Shown here: piece after piece, positions 3,001 through 34,394 of the stretch
Layout: each line of letters begins with the position of its first letter
Numbering within the stretch: position 1 is the first letter of the stretch
DNA from: an uncultured Gammaproteobacteria bacterium
GTDB lineage: Bacteria > Patescibacteriota > Microgenomatia > Levybacterales > UBA12049
Reading direction: 5' to 3'
Assembly: GCA_964389405.1 (NCBI GenBank)
Contig: CAYMDS010000001.1
Span: 1 to 39,202, forward strand
Length of the DNA: 39,202 bases
Notes under the pieces: model-generated
The model's input: only the letters and a program-made list of their open reading frames with translations
The model's database searches: none
What the model was told of the DNA's origin: nothing
Program-made: the position numbers and the translations under genes

Positions 3001-4181
3001 TCTATGGAGATATATTCTGTATTGCTGATGATAACTGTAAGCTGATTTATTTCAATACTGTCGACGAAACGAATGATGTATTATACTTTGTGGATTGTGC
3101 TAATGCTGTATGTTCTGGAGCTACACCTGGTAATATCGCGCAGGATTTTAATGGTGATACATCTTATGCCAATGTCCATATGTCTTTATACTGTGTATCT
3201 GATACAGATTGTAAGGCGTTGTATCATGATGCAGTAAATGGTGATTTAACCATGATTGATTGTTCGAATGCGGCATGCAGCGCACAGGATAGCGGCAGTC
3301 CATCTGATATTGATACTGGTGTGGGAGGAACAACAGTTAGCGCGCCTAATGATATCGATTGTAGTCCCGGATCCACAGACTGTAAGATAGTTTATATAGA
3401 TAGTTCTGAGAATGAGGTCAGTTTTGTGGATTGTCCGGATAGTGCTTGTACCTCCTCAGGTAGAACAATAACTAAGTTAGATGATACAGCTGGATCAAAT
3501 GTAGCTGATGTAGGTTTGGGGAATGAGATGGCCAGAATTGATTGTGTTTCTGCCACAGACTGTAAAGGCAGTTGGAGCGATGGTGCTACCTATAGTTACT
3601 TTTTTGATTGTGATAATGCTACATGTACTGCGGGTTCCGCAGAGCGATTGGTGACACCGGCATATGGTTCAGCTGTCGATTGCACAGGGGGAACATCTGA
3701 TTGTAAATTAGTATACTATGATGCCTATGTATCAGTTAATGATGGCCCGGTAACTTTTACTGACTGCACAAATGATAAATGCATACCCGACTGGACTGAT
3801 GCCTCAGATCCATGGACGGGGGAAAGCCAAATCGAATCAGTAACCATTACCTATGATTCGACGAACTCAGATATAGTAGCAAGTGCCATTATGGACTCTT
3901 CAGATCAGGCATATTTCAGAATAAGTGATGCAACCACCATTTCATGGGGAACAGAGTATTCATATAACTTAACAGCAGGGGATTTAGGACATCTGTCTTC
4001 GCCTGAATCCGCGGCGGGTTTTGGGGGAATGGGAATAGTATATAGACAGGGTAGTAATTTCGAGTTTGCCACTTTGCCTGAAAAAATATGGATATTTATT
4101 TTTATCACCCCTTTTTTCCCTATCTTTATTAAAGATATTAGAAAGCGTAAGATATCTAAGAAAATAAGCTGCATTCTTTAA
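1..4181 (+). CDS. Giant secreted/cell-surface protein (5' end off-window): Asp-box/beta-propeller-like N-terminal half, seven tandem 4-Cys repeats, C-terminal tripartite sorting signal
   Basis: The ORF track gives 33..4181, but the same frame is open from nt 3. It reads LILLISLSLIVSSLTPYVGTVGPVQA/NE, a signal-peptide h-region plus an AXA-like site, so the true start lies upstream of the window. Asp-box SxDxGxxW occurs at nt 960-980 (STDGITW) and 1920-1943 (STDGGVQW), with recurrent blade-like (I/V)x(I/V)xYxD segments. The C-terminus is ATLPEKIWIFIFITPFFPIFIKDIRKRKISKKISCIL. Confidence 0.85.
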   Translation, partial: LILLISLSLIVSSLTPYVGTVGPVQANEPTLSSISGASKSIKENGETDSKAKDLLVNALSEEIKTPRMIQKTSKDNKSVKFIFHKEPRVRIIKDGQEIEFETKELGNRKVNPKDSKIFKDKEVTYTEVIPGIDLKYSINDSVLIEEFIVKNKDTANMLKGYISQKVRTSGINLVSKDSDAFAFYTQDNKEIFQFSAPFAKDAKGDKTFDIQLTMNEEIGGYVLKKTLGEASRRWLMDPERSYPVIIDPSVVVSGGITESEAQYGSMQRKLASFTRVAGNKIDDAGDPGGMNGSSPQLVRTSTGVLYAVINDGGDIEIWKSTDGITWSEPASNGPTDLGTSAEVAIAIDSSNVIHILYENNDNSQDLKYITYASDAFNVGGAEIAINLGGTGNSFRGIDIALDNLGKPHVIGIQFGGSNRLKYANKTGANWSSDVDAHQGVGMHMASIAINEDYIPEIAFIDTTNDDLIALEGNANNATAFTDTSPVVDNSVHNTAGVYGTDIAVDLSGNTWISYIDATTQYVTLAKHNDSDSWGTWSTTNNTNVGSEPNIAVENGNVYVGYVDENADVAWDRYNGSWLGEKVRRAGTFQDVRLRWSHNSHSFSTNFDYLYSDGTDIYWDSLSDNFYAFYNDGGDVSYKKSTDGGVQWNTAVTVDDGDADNYNPSISVSNNIIHVFWVDDGAERIEGRRIDTGSSDAQGTLCQTSVDGTLGSTFMVTVAKLSDTASIIAYSDTSSDSEVNIFSLAGLDGACTGNSTSILTGTVTFGTQGPGLTAGDRPLLIPLSSTSVGMIFQDGTDLSYAQYFTTNNEWTRNNQTIASVTHNVYSAATNGTTIWLLVADTTQADDVFLYTYPTANTGAIESTTLDADVVGSSSDMEDSILDMYCVAADDCKIVFIDNLDTTAPDLMFVDCDNATCSSNTINNIDSDVGDASVGGNPKIYCVASDNCKILYGDMSDVAPDAVFVDCSVGDCDNAGTPGTCASGGRTCTVIDTDLGAADSEFYGDIFCIADDNCKLIYFNTVDETNDVLYFVDCANAVCSGATPGNIAQDFNGDTSYANVHMSLYCVSDTDCKALYHDAVNGDLTMIDCSNAACSAQDSGSPSDIDTGVGGTTVSAPNDIDCSPGSTDCKIVYIDSSENEVSFVDCPDSACTSSGRTITKLDDTAGSNVADVGLGNEMARIDCVSATDCKGSWSDGATYSYFFDCDNATCTAGSAERLVTPAYGSAVDCTGGTSDCKLVYYDAYVSVNDGPVTFTDCTNDKCIPDWTDASDPWTGESQIESVTITYDSTNSDIVASAIMDSSDQAYFRISDATTISWGTEYSYNLTAGDLGHLSSPESAAGFGGMGIVYRQGSNFEFATLPEKIWIFIFITPFFPIFIKDIRKRKISKKISCIL
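2652..3782 (+). repeat. Seven tandem protein-level repeats (~50-60 aa each) with four conserved Cys: C-x(4-6)-DCK-x2-(Y/F)...(F/M)-x-DC-x(3-4)-C
   Basis: Read from the translation: YCVAADDCKIVF..FVDCDNATC; YCVASDNCKILY..FVDCSVGDC; FCIADDNCKLIY..FVDCANAVC; YCVSDTDCKALY..MIDCSNAAC; DCSPGSTDCKIVY..FVDCPDSAC; DCVSATDCKGSW..FFDCDNATC; DCTGGTSDCKLVY..FTDCTNDKC. Confidence 0.85.
4074..4178 (+). other. C-terminal sorting-signal-like tail: LPEK motif, hydrophobic helix (IWIFIFITPFFPIFI), basic cluster (KDIRKRKISKK)
   Basis: These are the last 35 codons of the giant ORF. The tripartite layout matches PEP-CTERM/PGF-CTERM-type signals but the signature motif differs. An exosortase-family gene lies immediately downstream. 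Confidence 0.65.
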
Positions 4182-10512: not shown

Positions 10513-10579
10513 TACAGAAAAGTAATAATAGATAAATTATTTTGATATAAAACTCTAGAATACATTTTAATTTTTAGTG

Positions 10580-10601
10580 ACCAGTATACATGTATACTGG
10601 T
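10580..10601. promoter_or_regulatory. 22-bp perfect palindrome ACCAGTATACATGTATACTGGT, 7 nt upstream of the TrpR-like gene start; candidate operator
   Basis: Read directly from the sequence. It shares the 16-bp core AGTATACATGTATACT with the palindrome at 11034-11059. Confidence 0.6.
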
Positions 10602-10608
10602 TATATAT

Positions 10609-11040
10609 ATGCCTAGAGCATCGAAAAGAAAAATTAGATCAGAGCTCCTGGAAGAAATGCGTGACAACTTCGCATTCCTAATTTCGTCTTTAACTATTTC
10701 ATCTGATATCCAAAGTTTTTTTACAGTTTTTTTGACAGAAGAAGAAAAAATTATGCTTACCAAACGGTTGATGATTCATCTGATGCTTAAAAGCGGTTAT
10801 GAGATTTCTGAAATATGTGCTACTGTCGGTGTGAGTCGGGAAACAATCAGGACACATAAATCAGTTTGGATTACGAGTGATGAAAAATATAAAAAACTTA
10901 TAGCGAAATTAGCACAAAGAAAAAAGACTAAAGAGTTCTGGAAGAAAGTGGAAAAAGCTTTAAAGCCGTTAGAGTATGCTCTAACAGCGAAAACCAATAT
11001 GAAATCCCGCGCGAAACTATTTGATTACTCCTCTGACTAG
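10609..11040 (+). CDS. TrpR/YerC-YecD family helix-turn-helix regulator
   Basis: 143 aa. LTEEEKIMLTKRLMIHLMLKSGYEISEICATVGVSRETI matches the Trp-repressor-like fold pattern (helices plus an HTH ending in SxxTI). Confidence 0.7.
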   Translation: MPRASKRKIRSELLEEMRDNFAFLISSLTISSDIQSFFTVFLTEEEKIMLTKRLMIHLMLKSGYEISEICATVGVSRETIRTHKSVWITSDEKYKKLIAKLAQRKKTKEFWKKVEKALKPLEYALTAKTNMKSRAKLFDYSSD

Positions 11041-11059
11041 TATACATGTATACTAGTCA
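11034..11059. promoter_or_regulatory. 26-bp perfect palindrome TGACTAGTATACATGTATACTAGTCA overlapping the stop codon of the TrpR-like gene; second operator-like site
   Basis: Read directly from the sequence. It contains two ACTAGT hexamers and has the same 16-bp core as the upstream palindrome. No U-run follows it, so a simple terminator is unlikely. Confidence 0.55.
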
Positions 11060-11119
11060 TCCGATGCAAAAAGATTAATTATAGGTAAGAATTTGTTTTG
11101 TTGCTGAGTAATCATTTAA

Positions 11120-26794: not shown

Positions 26795-26860
26795 TAAAAA
26801 AAGTATCTAGCAAAAAGAATTAGTATTAAATTTAATACTTTATACTTAATACTAGATACT
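26795..26860 (-). terminator. Candidate intrinsic terminator downstream of rplL: compound hairpin followed by a U-run
   Basis: Minus strand: AGTATCTAG (26860-26852) pairs with CTAGATACT (26810-26802). This encloses the perfect 18-bp palindrome AGTATTAAATTTAATACT (26822-26839) and is followed by TTTTTT (26801-26796). Confidence 0.5.
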
Positions 26861-26863
26861 ATT

Positions 26864-27253
26864 TTATTTAAGTTCAACCGTTCCACCTGCCGTTGTGAGC
26901 TTTTCTTTAGCCTCTTCAGCAGTTTTCTTATTTACCTGCGTCAGGACTTCTTTTGGAGCTGTATCAGCAAGGTCTTTCGCTTCTTTGAGTCCCAATGTCG
27001 GAACCAGTTCTCTTATCGCTTTAATGACAGCGATTTTATTAGCTCCGGCACTTGTCAGTACTACGTTGAATACAGTCTGTTCTTCCTTCGGCTCATTTGA
27101 TGCTTCAGCAGGACCCGCTGCCGGGGCTGCCACAGCCATAGCCTGGGCTGAGACTCCAAACTTTTCCTCTAGTGCTTTTACAAGATCTGACAATTCTAAA
27201 ACTGACATTTCTTCAATCGCGCTCATTAATTCTTCTTTTGTAAGTTTTGCCAT
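26864..27253 (-). CDS. rplL: 50S ribosomal protein L7/L12
   Basis: [34 protein letters not shown], an Ala/Pro hinge and C-terminal [18 protein letters not shown]...VELK. A strong SD (GGGAGGTG) sits upstream. Confidence 0.97.
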
Positions 27254-27277
27254 ATGTCACCTCCCTTCGGTCAGTGA

Positions 27278-27348
27278 GAATAAAGAATCAAGATACATGA
27301 ATCGCAAATGGTGTTTGTTCTTGAATCTTGCTTCTTGAATCATGATTC
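27278..27348. repeat. Heptamer-periodic imperfect hairpin in the rplJ-rplL spacer (GAATAAA GAATCAA GATACAT GAATCGC / CTTGAAT CTTGCTT CTTGAAT CATGATT)
   Basis: Read by eye. The left arm 27278-27305 is complementary to the right arm 27321-27348 at roughly two-thirds of positions. Both arms have 7-nt periodicity. Confidence 0.4.
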
Positions 27349-27350
27349 GC

Positions 27351-27911
27351 TCACTGCTTTTTTTCTTTAACTGCACTTAAAGTCATTACAAATCTTTGTA
27401 AATTCCAGTTAAGAGCCCTATGGAATCCTGATATAGGAGATTGTAATTGTCCAAGGAGTTGGGCTCTGAGATGTGGCAAAGGTGGGAGTTTAGATAACTT
27501 ATCTATTTGAGTAGCATCTAGAATTTGGCCGTCTATAAATCCCTTTTTTACAACAGGTAAATTTAATGCCTTGATTGATTTAGCAAGCTCTTTTAAAGGC
27601 GATAGAACATCATCATATATAAAAAGCGTAGCGGTAGGACCATCAAAATTGAGAGTTGAGAGTTGAGAGTTGATAGCTTCGTTGTCTTTCGTGCCATCAT
27701 TCAATGCAATTTTGAGTAGTGTATTTTTGGTGGCGACGTACTCTGCATTAATTGACTTCATGGCGCGTTTTATTGTCTCAAGCTGTTGGTGGGTGAGGCC
27801 TTGATAGTCAGTGAAGACGAATCCTTTCGCATTTTGGACTTTTTCAACAATTTCGCCTACAATCGCTTGCTTTTTTTGTTTATTTGCACTTACTTGTTTA
27901 TCATTTTTCAT
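27351..27911 (-). CDS. rplJ: 50S ribosomal protein L10
   Basis: Position upstream of rplL, size (186 aa), and KQAIVGEIVEKVQNAKGFVFTDYQGLTHQQLETIKRAMK, typical of the L10 N-terminus. Confidence 0.93.
   Translation of the reverse strand: MKNDKQVSANKQKKQAIVGEIVEKVQNAKGFVFTDYQGLTHQQLETIKRAMKSINAEYVATKNTLLKIALNDGTKDNEAINSQLSTLNFDGPTATLFIYDDVLSPLKELAKSIKALNLPVVKKGFIDGQILDATQIDKLSKLPPLPHLRAQLLGQLQSPISGFHRALNWNLQRFVMTLSAVKEKKQ
27649..27676. repeat. Four tandem heptamers inside rplJ (+ strand TTGAGAG x3, TTGATAG), encoding part of INSQLSTLNF
   Basis: Read directly. Confidence 0.9.
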
Positions 27912-27940
27912 AAAAAAAAAGACACTCCTTTACGAGTGCC
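27912..27940 (-). promoter_or_regulatory. Terminator-like hairpin plus U9 immediately before the rplJ start codon (candidate L10-leader attenuator / SD-sequestering element)
   Basis: Minus strand: GGCACTC-GTAAAG-GAGTGTC (7-bp stem with one G-U) followed directly by TTTTTTTTT and then ATG. The only SD-like AAGGAG lies in the loop and 3' arm. Confidence 0.5.
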
Positions 27941-27945
27941 GGAAA

Positions 27946-28001
27946 GAATTTAGAATTATGAATTTAGAATTATGAATTCTAAACTATGAATTCTGAATTG
28001 T
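27946..28001. repeat. Eight tandem heptamers (GAATTTA GAATTAT GAATTTA GAATTAT GAATTCT AAACTAT GAATTCT GAATTGT) with a central 9-bp/3-nt-loop hairpin, in the rplJ 5' leader
   Basis: Read directly. The hairpin core is 27963-27971 / 27975-27983. Confidence 0.7.
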
Positions 28002-28092
28002 TTAAGCTCCTCGATGGGACTTATTTATTAATGCCCATTGTCTTAGGTTTTCGTATGATATCACGGCGATCTCATGATTGTCAACGCTCGGG

Positions 28093-29196
28093 TCACACAA
28101 GCATGTGCCCTGCGAGAAGAATAATTGGTAACAGCAGAAGGGCTACAAGCATCATATTGGTAGGATCCATTTGTCCAGCAGCATAATTCTCCATAGGAGT
28201 CAGAGTAGCTGTCGGAAAATCTGTACTTGTGGGAGGGATTGATGTAGGTGTTGTGTCCTGGCATACTGAAGGAGCTATTCCGCAGGACGTTCCACAGGAT
28301 AAGGGCTTAGGAGGATTTACTGCCCACGCATGCCAGGCTGGATCATCTTCAGTTAGCGGGCCATCTACACCTTTCCAATTTTCTGCTCGTTCCCGACATG
28401 CCTCTTTATCGTAAGTGGACTCTCCATACTCACACTCAGGCCAACCACTTCTTCTTGAATCTTCTTCACAATATGGAGTGTTTGTTGGTGTAGGTGAAGA
28501 AGAAGGATCCGGAGTCGGTGTGTCATCCTGATCCGGAGTAGGAGAAGGTGTAGTGGTAGGCGTTGGGCCGCCAAAAGTTGGGATCTGTGTAATCTCCGGA
28601 CCACCGTCTCCTGTAGGATCGCCTGTAAGTATTAAACTTAACGGTATAACTGTACCTAAGACATTATCAGTAGCGTTATCTACCGGTGCGACAGAGAGTA
28701 TATAAGAGGACTCACCGAAATGCACTAAAGCTTCCTCTCCTTCAGTAGGCGCTTCTGCTATAAAGCTTACTGATGCAGCTTTCGTGACAGTAGTTATAGC
28801 ATTGGTCGGATCAAAGCCTACAGATAGTTCCGCGCGGATTCTTCCTGGTGTAAGAAGTGGTCCATCTAGAAGAGAAGGGAAGGCTTGAGTGTTAGGTATA
28901 AATGAGGAATTTGGATCAACAGTGAGCTTAGTGGGATCATAAAGTATGTCAATTAGTATATAGGATACAGCATGAGATCCCGGGTTTACCATAATATCGA
29001 CAGTGAAATTTTCTCCTGTATTTTTAGATATAGGTGAAGGTGAATAATATAACGTAGCATTTCCAGATGCAGCAGTTCTATTTTCTTTAGGGTTTTTTAA
29101 CGATACGATTGTAAGGGGGATAGCTAAAATCACTGCGATCAAATACGCAATTACAAAAAGTAACACCTTATCTTTCCACAGTCTTTTTACATGCAT
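28093..29196 (-). CDS. Membrane-anchored surface protein: N-terminal signal anchor, cohesin-like beta-sandwich domain, Pro/Thr linker, Cys-rich domain, C-terminal hydrophobic helix
   Basis: MHVKRLWKDKVLLFVIAYLIAVILAIPL; GENFTVDIMVNPGSHAVSYILIDILYDPTKLTV (cohesin-type pattern); PTPTTTPSPTPDQDDTPTPDPSSSPTPTNTP; 7 Cys in ~80 aa; C-terminal MMLVALLLLPIILLAGHMLV. Visibly GC-richer than the flanking ribosomal genes. Confidence 0.6.
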   Translation of the reverse strand: MHVKRLWKDKVLLFVIAYLIAVILAIPLTIVSLKNPKENRTAASGNATLYYSPSPISKNTGENFTVDIMVNPGSHAVSYILIDILYDPTKLTVDPNSSFIPNTQAFPSLLDGPLLTPGRIRAELSVGFDPTNAITTVTKAASVSFIAEAPTEGEEALVHFGESSYILSVAPVDNATDNVLGTVIPLSLILTGDPTGDGGPEITQIPTFGGPTPTTTPSPTPDQDDTPTPDPSSSPTPTNTPYCEEDSRRSGWPECEYGESTYDKEACRERAENWKGVDGPLTEDDPAWHAWAVNPPKPLSCGTSCGIAPSVCQDTTPTSIPPTSTDFPTATLTPMENYAAGQMDPTNMMLVALLLLPIILLAGHMLV

Positions 29197-29253: not shown

Positions 29254-30084
29254 TTAACTAAGTGAATTGATGTCCAGTCTGATGCCGGGGGACATAGTAG
29301 ATTTAAGGGTAACATTCTTTATGTTTTTCATTTGGATTGCTGTTATCGCCGTTCTTATATTTTCTGAAAGTTTATTTTCTCCAAATGAAACTTTTCCTAC
29401 CATCATATGAAGTATGGGGAATTTTGCTTCAGTTTTAAAGTTTATTTGTCCTCCTTCATATTGCTTTGCGGCATCATTTGGCTTCGGGGTTACTGTGCCA
29501 TTTTTGGGATTTGGCATAAGGCCTTTCGGACCCAAGACTCGTGCTATACGAGCAAGTTTAGGCATAGAATCAGGTGTTGCTATAAGAATGTCAAAGTCAA
29601 TTACTCCTGATTCTACTTTTTTAATTAAATCTTCAAGACTCTTCGAATCCTCTGATTGACTGACTATGGTAACGCGCGTTTTTTTTCCGGAACCATGTGG
29701 AAGTGTTACATTACCAGATATGCCTTTCTCTGTGGTATTAATATGAAGTTCCACAGATTCATCGTATTTGGCAAGTCCGAGTTTAGGAAGAAGTGATAAA
29801 GCTTCAGTTAGTGAATATTGTTTGGATTTATCTAGGAGAGCTACTTTTTGTTGATATACACCTGATCTTTTGGATTTGGCATGTTTAGAGGCGTATTTGC
29901 TTTTCGTTTTTGGTTTAATTTCGGATGTGTTTATAGGAGGGTTATCTTTTGGATTTTCTTTCGTTTCTGCATTATCAGCCTCTCTTTTTTCTGCACGCTT
30001 TGCCTCTGCCCGTTTGCGAGCTTCTTCCTCTTGTTTTTTTTCTTTTTCTTCATCGCCGAGCGATTTGATTCTAATTTTACCCAT
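29254..30084 (-). CDS. rplA: 50S ribosomal protein L1 with a ~65-aa Lys/Glu-rich N-terminal extension
   Basis: Core: YSLTEALSLLPKL...YDESVELHINT...GNVTLPHGSGKKTRV...LGPKGLMPNPKNGTVT...HMMVGKVSF. 276 aa, versus about 230 aa as I recall for typical L1. Confidence 0.93.
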   Translation of the reverse strand: MGKIRIKSLGDEEKEKKQEEEARKRAEAKRAEKREADNAETKENPKDNPPINTSEIKPKTKSKYASKHAKSKRSGVYQQKVALLDKSKQYSLTEALSLLPKLGLAKYDESVELHINTTEKGISGNVTLPHGSGKKTRVTIVSQSEDSKSLEDLIKKVESGVIDFDILIATPDSMPKLARIARVLGPKGLMPNPKNGTVTPKPNDAAKQYEGGQINFKTEAKFPILHMMVGKVSFGENKLSENIRTAITAIQMKNIKNVTLKSTMSPGIRLDINSLS

Positions 30085-30094
30085 AGTTTATTAA

Positions 30095-30171
30095 AGTTAT
30101 AAGTTATGAGTCCTGAGTTATGAGTCAAACTGCATTTCTAACTCATAATTCATAATTTATAACTCATAACT
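30095..30171. repeat. ~77-bp heptamer-built hairpin element (AGTTATA AGTTATG AGTCCTG AGTTATG AGT ... ACTCATA ATTCATA ATTTATA ACTCATA ACT), rplK-rplA spacer
   Basis: Arm pairing checked by hand: ~32-bp stem with a few mismatches and G-U pairs, ~15-nt loop. Near-identical copy at 30610-30686. Confidence 0.8.
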
Positions 30172-30177
30172 TGCTGT

Positions 30178-30600
30178 TTATTTTACCTCAACGCCCATAC
30201 TACGTGCTGTACCAATTACTATCTTAACTGCTGGCTGTAATTCATTCGTATTCAGGTCTTCCATTTTTTGTTTTGCTATCTCTTCAGCTTGAGATACAGA
30301 AATCACACCGCCTGATTCACGGCCTGGTTTCTGAGAGCCTTTTTCTTTTTTTAAAGCCTTCTTAATCATCTCAGCAACCGGTGGCTTTTTCGTAATGAAG
30401 GTGAATGTTCTATCTTCATAAACTGTTATAACTACAGGAAGAATATTGCCTTTTTGATCGGCTGTTTTATCATTGTAAGCCTTTACGAATTCCATGATCG
30501 GCAATCCGTGTTGACCTAAGGCAGGGCCTACAGGTGGTGCTGGAGTTGCAGCACCTGCTGGAATATTAAGTTTAATAAGTGTTTTAATTTTTTTAGCCAT
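30178..30600 (-). CDS. rplK: 50S ribosomal protein L11
   Basis: [43 protein letters not shown] is the canonical L11 N-terminus. Confidence 0.97.
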
Positions 30601-30609
30601 ATATTAAAA

Positions 30610-30686
30610 AATTATGAGTTATGAGTGCTGAGTTATGAGTTTAACTACGTTATTTACTCATAATTCATAATTCGTAACTCATAACT
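30610..30686. repeat. Second copy of the ~77-bp heptamer-built hairpin element (AATTATG AGTTATG AGTGCTG AGTTATG AGT ... ACTCATA ATTCATA ATTCGTA ACTCATA ACT), nusG-rplK spacer
   Basis: Arm pairing checked by hand. Same architecture and nearly the same sequence as 30095-30171. Confidence 0.8.
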
Positions 30687-30689
30687 ATT

Positions 30690-31262
30690 TTATATTTTTT
30701 TCACTTGTAAAAAATCTAACTCTACCACTGTTTCTCTTCCGAATAAAGTAACCAATACTTTCAGTTTACCCCGCGCTTCATCTATCGCATCAACAGTTCC
30801 TAGGAAATCAGTAAGAGGGCCATCAACAATTTTTACTGCCTCGCCAGTCGTGAAAGCAGTTTTATATAGAGGTTGTTCCTGCTTCATGAATTGTTTTATC
30901 GCTTCAACCTCATTGTCAGAAATTGGGGTAGGCTTATTGCCAGCACCGATAAAAGCAGTCACACCTTGAGTGGATCTTACTAAAAGCCATGTCTCATCAT
31001 CCAGAATCATCCGAATTAGAACGTATCCTGGAAAAATTTTCTCCTGAACATTTTCCTTTTTTCCGGATGATACTTTTATAGTGCTTCTAGTTGGAACGAT
31101 AATATCGAAAACCCTTTCATCAAATCCTAAAGATTGCACCCGCTGCTGCAGATTTTTCGCCACCTTATTCTCATGGCCGGCATAAGTATGAACGATGTAC
31201 CACTTGCCCTGATCTGATGCGGTCTTTGCTTTTTCTTCTGTGACTGTAGTTGTAGTATCCAT
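30690..31262 (-). CDS. nusG: Transcription termination/antitermination factor NusG
   Basis: KWYIVHTYAGHENKVAKNL (NGN domain) and GEAVKIVDGPLTDFLGTV...LKVLVTLFGRETVVELDF (KOW domain). Confidence 0.95.
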   Translation of the reverse strand: MDTTTTVTEEKAKTASDQGKWYIVHTYAGHENKVAKNLQQRVQSLGFDERVFDIIVPTRSTIKVSSGKKENVQEKIFPGYVLIRMILDDETWLLVRSTQGVTAFIGAGNKPTPISDNEVEAIKQFMKQEQPLYKTAFTTGEAVKIVDGPLTDFLGTVDAIDEARGKLKVLVTLFGRETVVELDFLQVKKI

Positions 31263-31372
31263 ATATTCCTTTCTCCCGATTTAATCGGGATTCAGTCAAA
31301 ATAAAAGATTAAAAATGAGATCTCAAAGATTTTATTTTTAATTTATATTTCTGAGATTTTATCTTTGATTTT

Positions 31373-31873
31373 TTATTTGCCATTTCCGACGATAACCTGT
31401 GCTGGTCTTAATACAGTATCAAACAACATATACCCAGCCCGCACTTCTTTCAATACCTTATTCTCTTCCCCCTCTATGCTACTTATCGCTTCCATAAGAT
31501 ATGGATCGAAATCTTTTCCTATAGTATCAATCTTTATAACTCCTTCGATTTTCAAAATACTAAGAAATTGGTCAATGCTTACTCTTATATTCTTATCTTC
31601 TGTATGTAAAGCCGCAAGAGTTAATGTATCTAAAACAGGAAGAATTCGCAAGAGCAAATCTCTATTTGCTGATTTTACCCACTCAGATTTTTTTTCTCTT
31701 ACCCACTTTTCCTGATTCTGGTAATCCGCAAGCGCTCTTTTCCACTTACCTTCAAACTCTTTAACTTTGTTCTCCAATTCCTCAATTTTATTGTTTTCTT
31801 TAGTATCTTCAACTACTTCCTGATTTTCATTTTTTTCTTCATTATTTTTCGCGTTATTATCATCTTTTTTCAT
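31373..31873 (-). CDS. grpE: Nucleotide exchange factor GrpE
   Basis: Acidic/Lys-rich N-terminus, KRALADYQNQEKWVRE, DPYLMEAI...VLRPAQVIV. Lies downstream of hrcA. Confidence 0.9.
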   Translation of the reverse strand: MKKDDNNAKNNEEKNENQEVVEDTKENNKIEELENKVKEFEGKWKRALADYQNQEKWVREKKSEWVKSANRDLLLRILPVLDTLTLAALHTEDKNIRVSIDQFLSILKIEGVIKIDTIGKDFDPYLMEAISSIEGEENKVLKEVRAGYMLFDTVLRPAQVIVGNGK

Positions 31874-33261: not shown

Positions 33262-34394
33262 TAATATAATTCAGGGTCAGCTGCAATTTCTTTCCAATTT
33301 ACAAAGTTGTCGTTATAAAATCCTGCTGTTGCTATCATTGCCGCATTATCGGTGCATAAAGATGGAATAGGAATCCGTAAGTCAATTTCAAATTTCAAAT
33401 TTCCAATTTCAAATTTCAAATTATCAGTTAAACTCTTATTTGCTGCGACTCCTCCACCCAGTATTAATGATTTAACTTTATATTCTTTAACAGCACTTAA
33501 TGTTTTAAATACAAGAACATCTACTATAGCTTTCTGAACCGATGCGCAAAGATCTGCAATCAACTGTAAATTTTCATCCTGAGGCGAATCGAAGGATTTC
33601 TCAAGGTTTCGCTGCAAAGACTCCTCGCTTCCCAAAGCCTGACTCAGAATGACAGTTCGGGTTTTACCAAAATCCCACCCATTTTTCTTAATTAAATTTA
33701 AAACAGATGTCTTAAGGCCGCTAAAGCTGAAATCATAGTCTTTAGAATCCCACATGGGACGAGGTAATAAAAATGCTTTTGGGTCACCTTTTTCAGCCAA
33801 TTTAGAAATAACAGGTCCGGCAGGATAGCGCAACCCTAAGAGTCTGCCTATCTTATCAAATGCCTCCCCGGCCGCATCATCTCTTGTGCCACCTATCACT
33901 GTCAAATCCCCATGGCTCTTCATATAAACAAGATCCGTATGCCCTCCTGAAACTACCAAGGCAATAGCAGGAAACCTTATCTTTTCCATTTTCCATTTTC
34001 CATTAACCATTAACCAGTTGGCGTAGATATGTCCATAAAGATGATTAACCGGGATAATAGGAATCTTCCAAAGATAGCTTAAAGTCTTTGCTGTCTCAAC
34101 TCCCACAAGCAGTGATCCGATGAGTCCCGGTCCATACGTTACTGCAATTGCATCTATTGCCGGGTGTTTAATATTCATACCCGCCTGCTGCAATGACTCT
34201 TTAATAACAGGAATTATAAACTTTATCTGCTCACGGGCAGCATTTTCAGGAATAATACCTCCCGTAGCAGCGTGATTTGCAAGTGAGGTTGCTAGACTGT
34301 TTGATACTAGCTTAACGAGTCGGCTCTTTACTGTTCCTTCAATCACAGCTGCCCCTGTTTCATCGCAACTTGTTTCAATTCCCAAAATTTTCAT
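33258..34394 (-). CDS. tsaD: tRNA N6-adenosine threonylcarbamoyltransferase TsaD (Kae1/Gcp family)
   Basis: MKILGIETSCDETGAAVI, PVNHLYGHIYAN, ALVVSGGHTDLV, DDAAGEAFDK, CTDNAAMIA. 378 aa, with repeat-derived insertions. Confidence 0.95.
   Translation of the reverse strand: MKILGIETSCDETGAAVIEGTVKSRLVKLVSNSLATSLANHAATGGIIPENAAREQIKFIIPVIKESLQQAGMNIKHPAIDAIAVTYGPGLIGSLLVGVETAKTLSYLWKIPIIPVNHLYGHIYANWLMVNGKWKMEKIRFPAIALVVSGGHTDLVYMKSHGDLTVIGGTRDDAAGEAFDKIGRLLGLRYPAGPVISKLAEKGDPKAFLLPRPMWDSKDYDFSFSGLKTSVLNLIKKNGWDFGKTRTVILSQALGSEESLQRNLEKSFDSPQDENLQLIADLCASVQKAIVDVLVFKTLSAVKEYKVKSLILGGGVAANKSLTDNLKFEIGNLKFEIDLRIPIPSLCTDNAAMIATAGFYNDNFVNWKEIAADPELYY
33381..33422. repeat. Six tandem heptamers inside tsaD (+ strand GTCAATT TCAAATT TCAAATT TCCAATT TCAAATT TCAAATT), encoding NLKFEIG NLKFEID
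   Basis: Read directly. 42 nt equals a 2 x 21-nt in-frame duplication. Confidence 0.9.
33983..34017. repeat. Five tandem heptamers inside tsaD (+ strand TTTCCAT x3, TAACCAT, TAACCAG), encoding part of WLMVNGKWKMEK
   Basis: Read directly. The repeat lies in the loop between the HxxGH metal motif and the SGGHT strand. Confidence 0.9.

Follow-up and report, generated by a model that had tools for sequence, protein, structure and literature searches.

In cyanobacteria, tandem repeats with a unit of 7 nucleotides (nt) have been on record since 1990, and in other phyla from about 2007-2015 onward, and we know of no explanation for either their origin or their function. Such repeats, denoted short tandemly repeated repetitive (STRR) elements or long simple-sequence repeats (LSSR), reportedly can lie within structural RNAs; in heterocystous cyanobacteria, an STRR is said to have been found by Vioque in 1997 inside helix P12 of the RNase P RNA. 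Another group of short repeats, the repetitive extragenic palindromic (REP) sequences, when located close to stop codons, affect mRNA stability and upstream translation. Here we analyze two heptamer-based hairpin elements that flank the rplK gene in a 39,202-nt contig (CAYMDS010000001.1, GenBank assembly GCA_964389405.1; hereafter the window, that is, the whole stretch of DNA that was analyzed) from a member of the Patescibacteria (candidate phyla radiation, CPR), the assignment indicated by the names of its RplK homologues.

Direct repeats of the heptamer TAACTGA are present in Beggiatoaceae, Cyanobacteria, and Bacteroidetes, in 169 direct sets and a single indirect one; they are intergenic, over-represented in ribosomal-protein (r-protein) operons, and located 5' of start codons that lack a Shine-Dalgarno (SD) sequence, and their patchy distribution across phyla suggests horizontal spread, with no known mechanism (MacGregor 2015, PMC4679880). 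The elements described here resemble these repeats in the unit of the 3' arm, TAACTCA, which differs from TAACTGA by one base, in the intergenic location within an r-protein operon, just upstream of starts without an SD sequence, and in the patchy occurrence across phyla. In contrast to the direct TAACTGA sets, however, TAACTCA and GAGTTAT form inverted arrays that fold into hairpins anchored at the upstream stop codon. With STRR and LSSR, the elements share the 7-nt tandem unit, the multiplicity of heptamer types per genome, the mostly intergenic location, the presence of AGT or ACT in many units, and the lengthening of existing RNA helices (here, those of the L10 leader and the rplL terminator), but they differ in that the arrays are inverted and paired, have a fixed polarity, and make up discrete cassettes of ~80-110 nt that are copied between gene junctions. 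They are not STRR in the strict sense, the host being a CPR bacterium rather than a heterocystous cyanobacterium and the units differing from the STRR1-3 consensus units CCCCAGT, TTGGTCA, and CAACAGT. In a limited literature search, we found no published description of the inverted-array cassette form, the anchoring at stop codons, the polarity, or the presence of such cassettes in CPR, nor any relevant account of heptamer hairpins in Nostoc.

The initial annotation, made from the sequence alone, reported a pair of heptamer hairpins around rplK. A repeat search of the window recovered this pair as two direct copies of 79 nt each (30093-30171 and 30608-30686) that are identical in 67 of the 79 positions (85%) and are paralogous to each other:

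30093-30171, minus strand: copy 1 of the GAGT-type heptamer hairpin, located between rplK and rplA; 15-nt loop between the arms 30094-30125 and 30141-30172
30601-30695 (extended; core 30608-30686), minus strand: copy 2 of the GAGT-type heptamer hairpin, located between nusG and rplK; core arms 30609-30640 and 30656-30687

Both copies consist of 32-nt arms and a 15-nt loop, with 26 (copy 1) and 25 (copy 2) Watson-Crick pairs plus 2 and 1 G.U pairs, respectively, and the arm mismatches cluster centrally, at identical arm positions in the two copies (14/15, 17, 19-20, and 24). The arms follow the pattern GAGTNNN on the 5' side and NNNACTC on the 3' side, and Tandem Repeats Finder detects period 7 in all four arms, with 3.7-4.7 copies of a tandem unit of exactly 7 nt. 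Thus, the proposed architecture (about 4.5 heptamers per arm, a loop of about 15 nt, a stem of about 32 bp, and shared mismatch positions) is borne out, as is the claim that the elements nearly fill their spacers, which are 93 and 89 nt long. Copy 1 starts 5 nt past the rplK stop codon and ends 10 nt short of the rplA ATG, and the arms of copy 2, when extended, reach 40 nt and cover the whole interval between the stop codon of nusG and position -1 of the rplK ATG. The 3' arms stop 8-10 nt before the rplK and rplA ATGs, with no GGAGG-like motif there. Of the 11 occurrences of the sequence TTATGAGT, where 2.2 would be expected, 9 are inside the two elements. Four further, independently assembled metagenome contigs with the same RplK contain spacers 100% identical to those of the window, which excludes an assembly artefact; the five assemblies of this strain show no difference in heptamer copy number.

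The folding energy, calculation of which had been proposed as a check, is far below the shuffled background: the minimum free energy of the sense-strand RNA is -28.6 kcal/mol for copy 1 and -24.8 kcal/mol for copy 2 (z = -6.75 and -6.15, respectively), and none of the 200 shuffles equaled it. Both RNA strands of each copy fold into one long hairpin (z between -6 and -8), and the antisense strand folds equally well or better (-33.4 versus -24.8 and -28.9 versus -28.6 kcal/mol, antisense versus sense). The stem of copy 2 is followed by U6, and that of copy 1 merely by UUU.

We compared the same operon in eight related genomes, with RplK 82-96% identical; the source genome itself was sampled over the 39 kb of the window. 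The secE-nusG, nusG-rplK, and rplK-rplA junctions of the relatives usually contain a hairpin of 70-120 nt, and the cassette types are combined in a shuffled fashion:

GAGT type: nusG-rplK and rplK-rplA of the window; rplK-rplA of L125; all three junctions of L130
AAGT type: secE-nusG of L129; secE-nusG and nusG-rplK of L131; rplK-rplA of L253
AAAAGTT type: nusG-rplK of L129; secE-nusG of L253
CAAAGAT type: grpE-nusG of the window; rplK-rplA of L127; rplK-rplA of L129
CGGAT type: secE-nusG of L125; nusG-rplK of L253

In the two elements flanking rplK, (G/A)AGTNNN heptamers make up the 5' arm and the complementary NNNACT(C/T) heptamers the 3' arm, on either side of a loop. There are several cassette types, each nearly unchanged between genomes with saturated synonymous sites, and these types are exchanged between junctions, overwritten by a neighboring type, or cleanly deleted between near-identical strains. 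The GAGT type thus is a repeated palindromic family, as initially surmised, with three further copies in L130, one in L125, and matches at 120 or more loci in each of two public collections (see below). Copy 1 of the window is 84% and 80% identical to the homologous copies in L125 and L130, respectively, the 3' arm of the L125 copy being one unit longer. In L129, a plain, non-hairpin (ACTCATA) x5.5 array was observed at 3273-3311, 8 nt past the stop codon of a DUF5995 gene, so that the GAGT/ACTC units occur outside the r-protein operon in this clade as well.

The evolution of the cassettes is decoupled from that of the flanking genes. Between the window and L130, only 24 of 73 four-fold degenerate sites are identical in nusG, 31 of 61 in rplK, and 24 of 85 in rplA, that is, these sites are saturated; the nusG-rplK elements of the two genomes are 88% identical. 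Between the window and L127, 109 of 304 four-fold sites (36%) are identical; the grpE-nusG spacer of the window and the rplK-rplA spacer of L127, which are non-orthologous junctions, are 90.7% identical over 107 nt, and both of these CAAAGAT cassettes run exactly from TAA to ATG. Altogether, the cassettes are 88-91% identical between genomes that are 28-51% identical at four-fold sites. Conversely, L130 and L131 do not differ in RplK and match at 88-99% of the four-fold sites, but their secE-nusG and nusG-rplK hairpins belong to different types and are 62-69% identical (62% for the nusG-rplK spacer), and the rplK-rplA hairpin of L130 is absent from L131, which has a 2-nt spacer at this junction. 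The secE-nusG cassettes of L131 and L129 have an identical 27-mer in common, which indicates that the AAGT type is old and makes the GAGT copy at secE-nusG of L130 look like an overwrite by the neighboring type. The combination of conserved types, rapid replacement at single sites, and relocation between junctions is the behavior of mobile or gene-converting DNA, unlike that of a vertically inherited regulatory RNA. As judged from these sequence comparisons, the history of the cassettes points to mobility or gene conversion at the DNA level rather than to vertical descent.

The explanation we favor, with about even confidence, is that one non-autonomous palindromic cassette, a hairpin-forming variant of STRR/LSSR that is created and propagated at the DNA level, gave rise to both elements as paralogous copies. 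Under this scenario, 7-nt slippage within the arms would be the generating process, one arm would serve as a template for the other, and copies would spread by copy-to-copy gene conversion or by mobilization in trans between junctions. Loss could occur through hairpin-stimulated deletion; the empty site of L131 looks like a deletion. The elements would be co-transcribed with nusG, rplK, and rplA, and the AU-rich stem of ~32 bp would loop out the whole spacer, juxtaposing the upstream stop codon and the downstream start codon at the base of the stem and so preserving termination-reinitiation coupling. This adjacency of stop and start would make the insertion tolerable in a translationally coupled, highly expressed operon whose relatives have spacers of 2-4 nt. 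A modest role of the stem, as a 3' barrier of the mRNA or an intercistronic insulator, is plausible.

The cassettes differ from the described families of mobile palindromes. The initial comparison with REP elements and miniature inverted-repeat transposable elements (MITEs) stands in its first part with respect to position, the hairpins being extragenic, located after stop codons, and found in co-directional or convergent spacers, but finds no support in its second. Like REPs and their composite forms, bacterial interspersed mosaic elements (BIMEs) and REP doublets (REPINs), the cassettes are imperfect extragenic palindromes that follow stop codons within and between operons, are rare in divergent spacers, and would be transcribed as mRNA hairpins, and, as in REPs and REPINs, the family is conserved in sequence despite turnover at individual sites. 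Unlike REPs and REPINs, they contain no GTAG but a (G/A)AGT core every 7 nt, several types coexist, and no gene for a REP-associated tyrosine transposase (RAYT) is seen within the 39-kb window. With MITEs, such as Correia/NEMIS, RUP, and Nezha, they share the small size, the non-coding palindromic character, the presence-absence polymorphism among strains, and the possible co-transcription; however, they have arms of tandem heptamers instead of unique terminal inverted repeats, and no target-site duplication is seen consistently. In L131, the sequence of the empty site is AAAATAA/CTATG (the slash marks the site), and the flanks shared around filled sites are AATAAAC for copy 1 of the window, just ATAAA for L130, and none for L125. 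The top 25 of the 60 Pfam families matched by 29 open reading frames (ORFs) of the window include no transposase, nor was an autonomous insertion sequence (IS) with matching ends seen in the window; the assignment of the elements to MITEs thus finds no support.

The distribution of the hairpins was explored with a two-arm search pattern (GAGTTATGAGT, 8-30 nt, ACTCATAAYTCA), for which about one chance match is expected by our estimate; the counts and taxon lists from the scans of GTDB and metagenomes are lower bounds that depend on scan order. The two-arm GAGTNNN hairpin pattern was found in at least 120 GTDB genomes, and a one-arm pattern in at least 120 metagenome contigs with GC contents from 27% to 68%. 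Among the matches listed, to which the numbers in this and the following paragraph refer, the taxa are mostly Bacteroidota, Cyanobacteria, and Chloroflexota, and include also Saccharibacteria, Planctomycetes, Clostridia, and Gammaproteobacteria. A phage origin is unlikely given that only 1 match was found among the 2.9 million contigs of the viral collection (IMG/VR); this viral contig (L255, 4643-8336) carries at least five more heptamer hairpins within 4 kb, of the AGTCGTC/AGTGGTC type and all with the 5'-AGT polarity. Across the class, the arrays have a constant (G/A)AGT core and variable positions 5-7 (TAT, TTT, GAT, TAG, TCA, GCT, and others), and the same loci hold many other heptamer arrays, about half of which contain AGT or ACT. 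The 107 classifiable hairpins lie in co-directional (71), convergent (29), or divergent (7) spacers, with 0 inside an ORF. In co-directional spacers, the median distance from the upstream stop codon to the stem is 3 nt (within 20 nt in 83%), and that from the end of the stem to the next start is 26 nt. A run of four or more Ts follows the stem in 4% of the co-directional cases, so that the class does not represent intrinsic terminators; the stems in the window are AU-rich and were not called by a terminator scan. Seven of the 129 genes directly upstream of hairpins encode the ATP synthase beta subunit; in particular, at least six species of Flavobacteriaceae (L041, L056, L071, L096, L102, and L107) contain a GAGTTAT-type hairpin in the atpD-atpC spacer, directly 3' of the atpD stop codon, with an A-rich leader between the hairpin and the start of atpC. 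By analogy, these hairpins parallel those in the r-protein operon of the window and the enrichment of TAACTGA repeats at translation genes described by MacGregor.

The hairpins have a fixed polarity. At the 102 distinct metagenome loci with the one-arm pattern, the GAGT-type array is located 5' of an ACTC array in 54 cases and 3' of it in 0. In a second sample, 59 independent hairpins built from other heptamer units, with the pattern matches masked, the 5' arm contains AGT in 32 cases versus ACT in 2, and G exceeds C in the 5' arm in 49 cases versus 7 (p = 7e-9). The control set of 360 non-heptamer inverted repeats from the same loci shows no bias (148 versus 160). Because a palindrome reads alike on both strands, the G-bearing arm is the 5' one on both strands. 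On these sequence counts, the polarity is predicted by neither structure-only selection nor simple slippage, and an oriented recognition or propagation process would predict it.

Several observations weigh against propagation of the cassettes at the DNA level. Neither a mobilizing enzyme nor a terminal signature nor a consistent target duplication was found, and the folding of the stem in vivo that would make the insertions tolerable is a prediction. The 88-91% conservation, which extends into the loop of the CAAAGAT cassette, could reflect strong purifying selection instead of recent spread. A hairpin of similar size occupies the nusG-rplK junction in six of the eight lineages regardless of sequence, as selection at the level of structure would predict, and the concentration of the hairpins in one operon region across ~190 kb of CPR sequence fits operon-specific selection equally well. 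In addition, the ORF calls at the 120 GTDB loci are crude (ATG-to-stop, greedy), the stop positions being robust.

The strongest alternative is that the hairpins are selected intercistronic RNA structures, such as a site of processing by RNase III or another nuclease, a barrier to 3' exonucleases, an attenuator, or a translational insulator, which we regard as possible but not probable. Similarly tentative is the specific version in which these structures segment the secE-nusG-rplKA transcript and set relative expression, such that any heptamer hairpin sequence may substitute for another. This would fit with the presence of a ~30-bp hairpin at nusG-rplK in the window, L125, L127, L129, L130, and L131 despite unrelated sequences, with the G-C to A-U double changes that distinguish the GAGT and AAGT types and keep the pairing, and with conservation of the elements far above that of four-fold sites. 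That orthologous junctions in highly expressed operons repeatedly hold members of the class (atpD-atpC of Flavobacteriaceae being an example), that U6 follows copy 2, and that the fold z-scores are around -6 also favor selection on RNA. However, the spacers of L254 are merely 4 and 3 nt long, which shows that the hairpins are dispensable (the rplK-rplA spacer of the P0020 locus is 4 nt as well), and L131 has lost the rplK-rplA hairpin even though its RplK is identical to that of L130. There is no enrichment of G.U pairs on the sense strand (G.U and A.C mismatches, sense versus antisense, among the matches listed: 95 versus 116, Wilcoxon p = 0.24), which argues against selection on the pairing of one transcript, and the antisense strands of both window copies fold equally well or better. 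T-runs after the stems are rare, and neither the polarity of the G-bearing 5' arm nor the identity of cassettes at non-orthologous junctions is predicted by selection on structure only. In an RNAalifold analysis of eight family copies, 3 pairs show double-sided changes, a number too small, and too subject to confounding by conversion, for these pairs to be taken as evidence of covariation. The conserved, r-protein-specific RNA-processing structure envisaged in the initial annotation finds no support in this comparison, with relatives carrying unrelated hairpins or 2-4-nt spacers and with no sense-strand G.U bias.

A rather doubtful extension of DNA-level propagation invokes a hitherto undescribed, phylogenetically widespread, sequence-specific system of nucleic-acid processing or propagation that would recognize an (N)AGT core, keep to a fixed 7-nt register in which 3-4 positions are free, and produce inward-facing arrays just 3' of stop codons, nick-and-extend or recombinase-like copying being possible modes; the cassettes would then be exchanged horizontally among strains and junctions. 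Such a system would jointly explain the 7-nt period, the core with free positions, the polarity of the 5' G-bearing arm on both strands, and the AT-rich units in contigs of 27-68% GC.

The explanation that the hairpins are a pure mutational by-product of 7-nt replication slippage and templated quasi-palindrome correction wherever these are harmless, with no trans factor and no function, appears distinctly unlikely. It is compatible with period 7 being the sole enriched tandem period in the 39-kb window (41 positions versus 0 for periods 3-6 and 8-12), including within the rplJ and tsaD coding sequences, and with the many different heptamers per genome; furthermore, heptanucleotides are the commonest class of long simple-sequence repeats in prokaryotes, according to the summary of Mrazek 2007 in PMC4679880. 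Nevertheless, local slippage fails to account for 107 nt, loop and tail included, that are 91% identical when different junctions are compared between genomes in which synonymous sites are saturated, and explains neither the presence of the same AT-rich GAGTNNN arrays where the GC content of the contig is 60-68% nor the 54:0 and 49:7 arm polarity among the matches listed.

Finally, the proposal that the elements stand in for, or conceal, the autoregulatory mRNA mimic to which L1 binds in the L11 operon is most improbable: the rplK and rplA leaders are the site of the Escherichia coli-type L1 operator, the genomic position thus being the same, and the small hairpin of the grpE-nusG cassette contains GGGAG, but the spacers are almost entirely AU-rich heptamer stem, the leaders are not conserved, both junctions are occupied in relatives by unrelated sequences or by spacers of 2-4 nt, and the leaders have no relevant Rfam match at E <= 10 (the presence of an L1-leader model in Rfam is unconfirmed). 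At gathering thresholds, Rfam yields no match in the whole window, and, at E <= 10 in the 26.5-31.5 kb region, the two elements match eukaryotic miRNA-precursor models only, by chance, as any long hairpin would. The sole classical leader recovered in the Rfam comparison that the initial annotation had called for is a sub-threshold L10 leader before rplJ.

The initial annotation also noted that the heptamer construction recurs elsewhere in the window, and other hairpins and arrays were indeed found. Every long period-7 hairpin of the window falls within 26.8-31.4 kb, where the spacers contain GAGTTAT, CAAAGAT, GAATTCT, TTCAAGA, and AGTATNN units, and three more arrays are in coding sequences. 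The genes and structures of this region are as follows:

31263-31372, minus strand: grpE-nusG spacer cassette, consisting of a CAAAGAT-type hairpin (31299-31378), a small GC hairpin, and an SD-like GAAAGGAA motif
30690-31262, minus strand: nusG (Pfam NusG, E = 2e-30)
30178-30600, minus strand: rplK, encoding L11 (Pfam L11 N- and C-terminal domains)
29254-30084, minus strand: rplA, encoding L1 (Pfam Ribosomal_L1 at residues 105-266)
28093-29196, minus strand: ORF of 367 amino acids (aa) with no Pfam match, between rplA and rplJ
27947-27999, minus strand: GAATTCT/AGAATTT heptamer hairpin, located as an insertion where the L10 leader is variable
27351-27911, minus strand: rplJ (identified by Pfam)
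27277-27335, minus strand: TTCAAGA-type heptamer hairpin in the rplJ-rplL spacer
26864-27253, minus strand: rplL (identified by Pfam)
26800-26862, minus strand: rplL terminator hairpin, with a 5' arm of four AGTATNN heptamers and U7 after the stem

By its construction, the grpE-nusG cassette is a different type within the same heptamer-hairpin class as the GAGT copies. In the window, nusG is located downstream of grpE-hrcA (31263-31873), and in all the relatives compared, downstream of secE; because the grpE-nusG junction holds the CAAAGAT type that is found at rplK-rplA in L127 and L129, this change of context suggests a rearrangement at a cassette. A motif, TTGACTGA, which resembles the TAACTGA unit of MacGregor, is found 3' of the hairpin in several spacers (at ~31290 in the window, ~5865 in L127, and ~9975 and ~10480 in L129, where it takes the form GACTGACTGA) and sits just 5' of SD-like GAAAGGAA motifs.

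The region upstream of rplJ matches the L10_leader model (RF00557) over its full length (27906-28065, minus strand; 31.4 bits versus the gathering score of 44, E = 0.024) and is, from this match, probably a divergent member of that family interrupted by a heptamer hairpin; its terminal hairpin, GGCACTCG..GAGTGTC with a U-run, is conserved in the relatives. Neither a convincing promoter nor a convincing terminator was detected in the spacers from nusG through rplK to rplA; rplJ (TTGACA-18-TATCAT, 28084-28055, minus strand) and the 367-aa ORF each have a strong promoter-like site upstream, that of the ORF being its own conserved one (TTGACA..TACTAT, 29232-29203). The 367-aa ORF is present also in L125, L127, L130, and L131, the remaining relatives having different, larger inserts at this position. 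RplA carries a Lys/Glu-rich N-terminal extension of ~90-100 aa ahead of the L1 domain.

The arrays within coding sequences include TTGAGAG x3.6 in rplJ (27649-27673) and two arrays in tsaD (33384-33422 and 33982-34016), one of which, AATTTCA x5.6, encodes the duplicated peptide LKFEIGN/LKFEID, and the other, TTTTCCA x3.3, corresponds in position to an insertion of 6 aa in the comparison with a solved TsaD structure, PDB 3zet. Two near-identical, almost perfect palindromes of 24-27 nt, TGACCAGTATACATGTATACTGGT, which have an operator-like appearance and are not built of heptamers, surround a 143-aa ORF (10609-11040) at 10578-10604 and 11034-11060. No tRNA or tmRNA was found in the window.

These findings add Patescibacteria to the hosts of the heptanucleotide repeat class. 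They also carry a warning for annotation, namely, that long hairpins in the r-protein leaders of CPR bacteria should not be read as regulatory RNAs. The locus together with its relatives represents a compact comparative system with testable regularities that constrain any mechanism: hairpin cassettes are located ~3 nt past stop codons, have a fixed arm polarity, and are conserved far above the neutral expectation, yet swap between junctions and strains.

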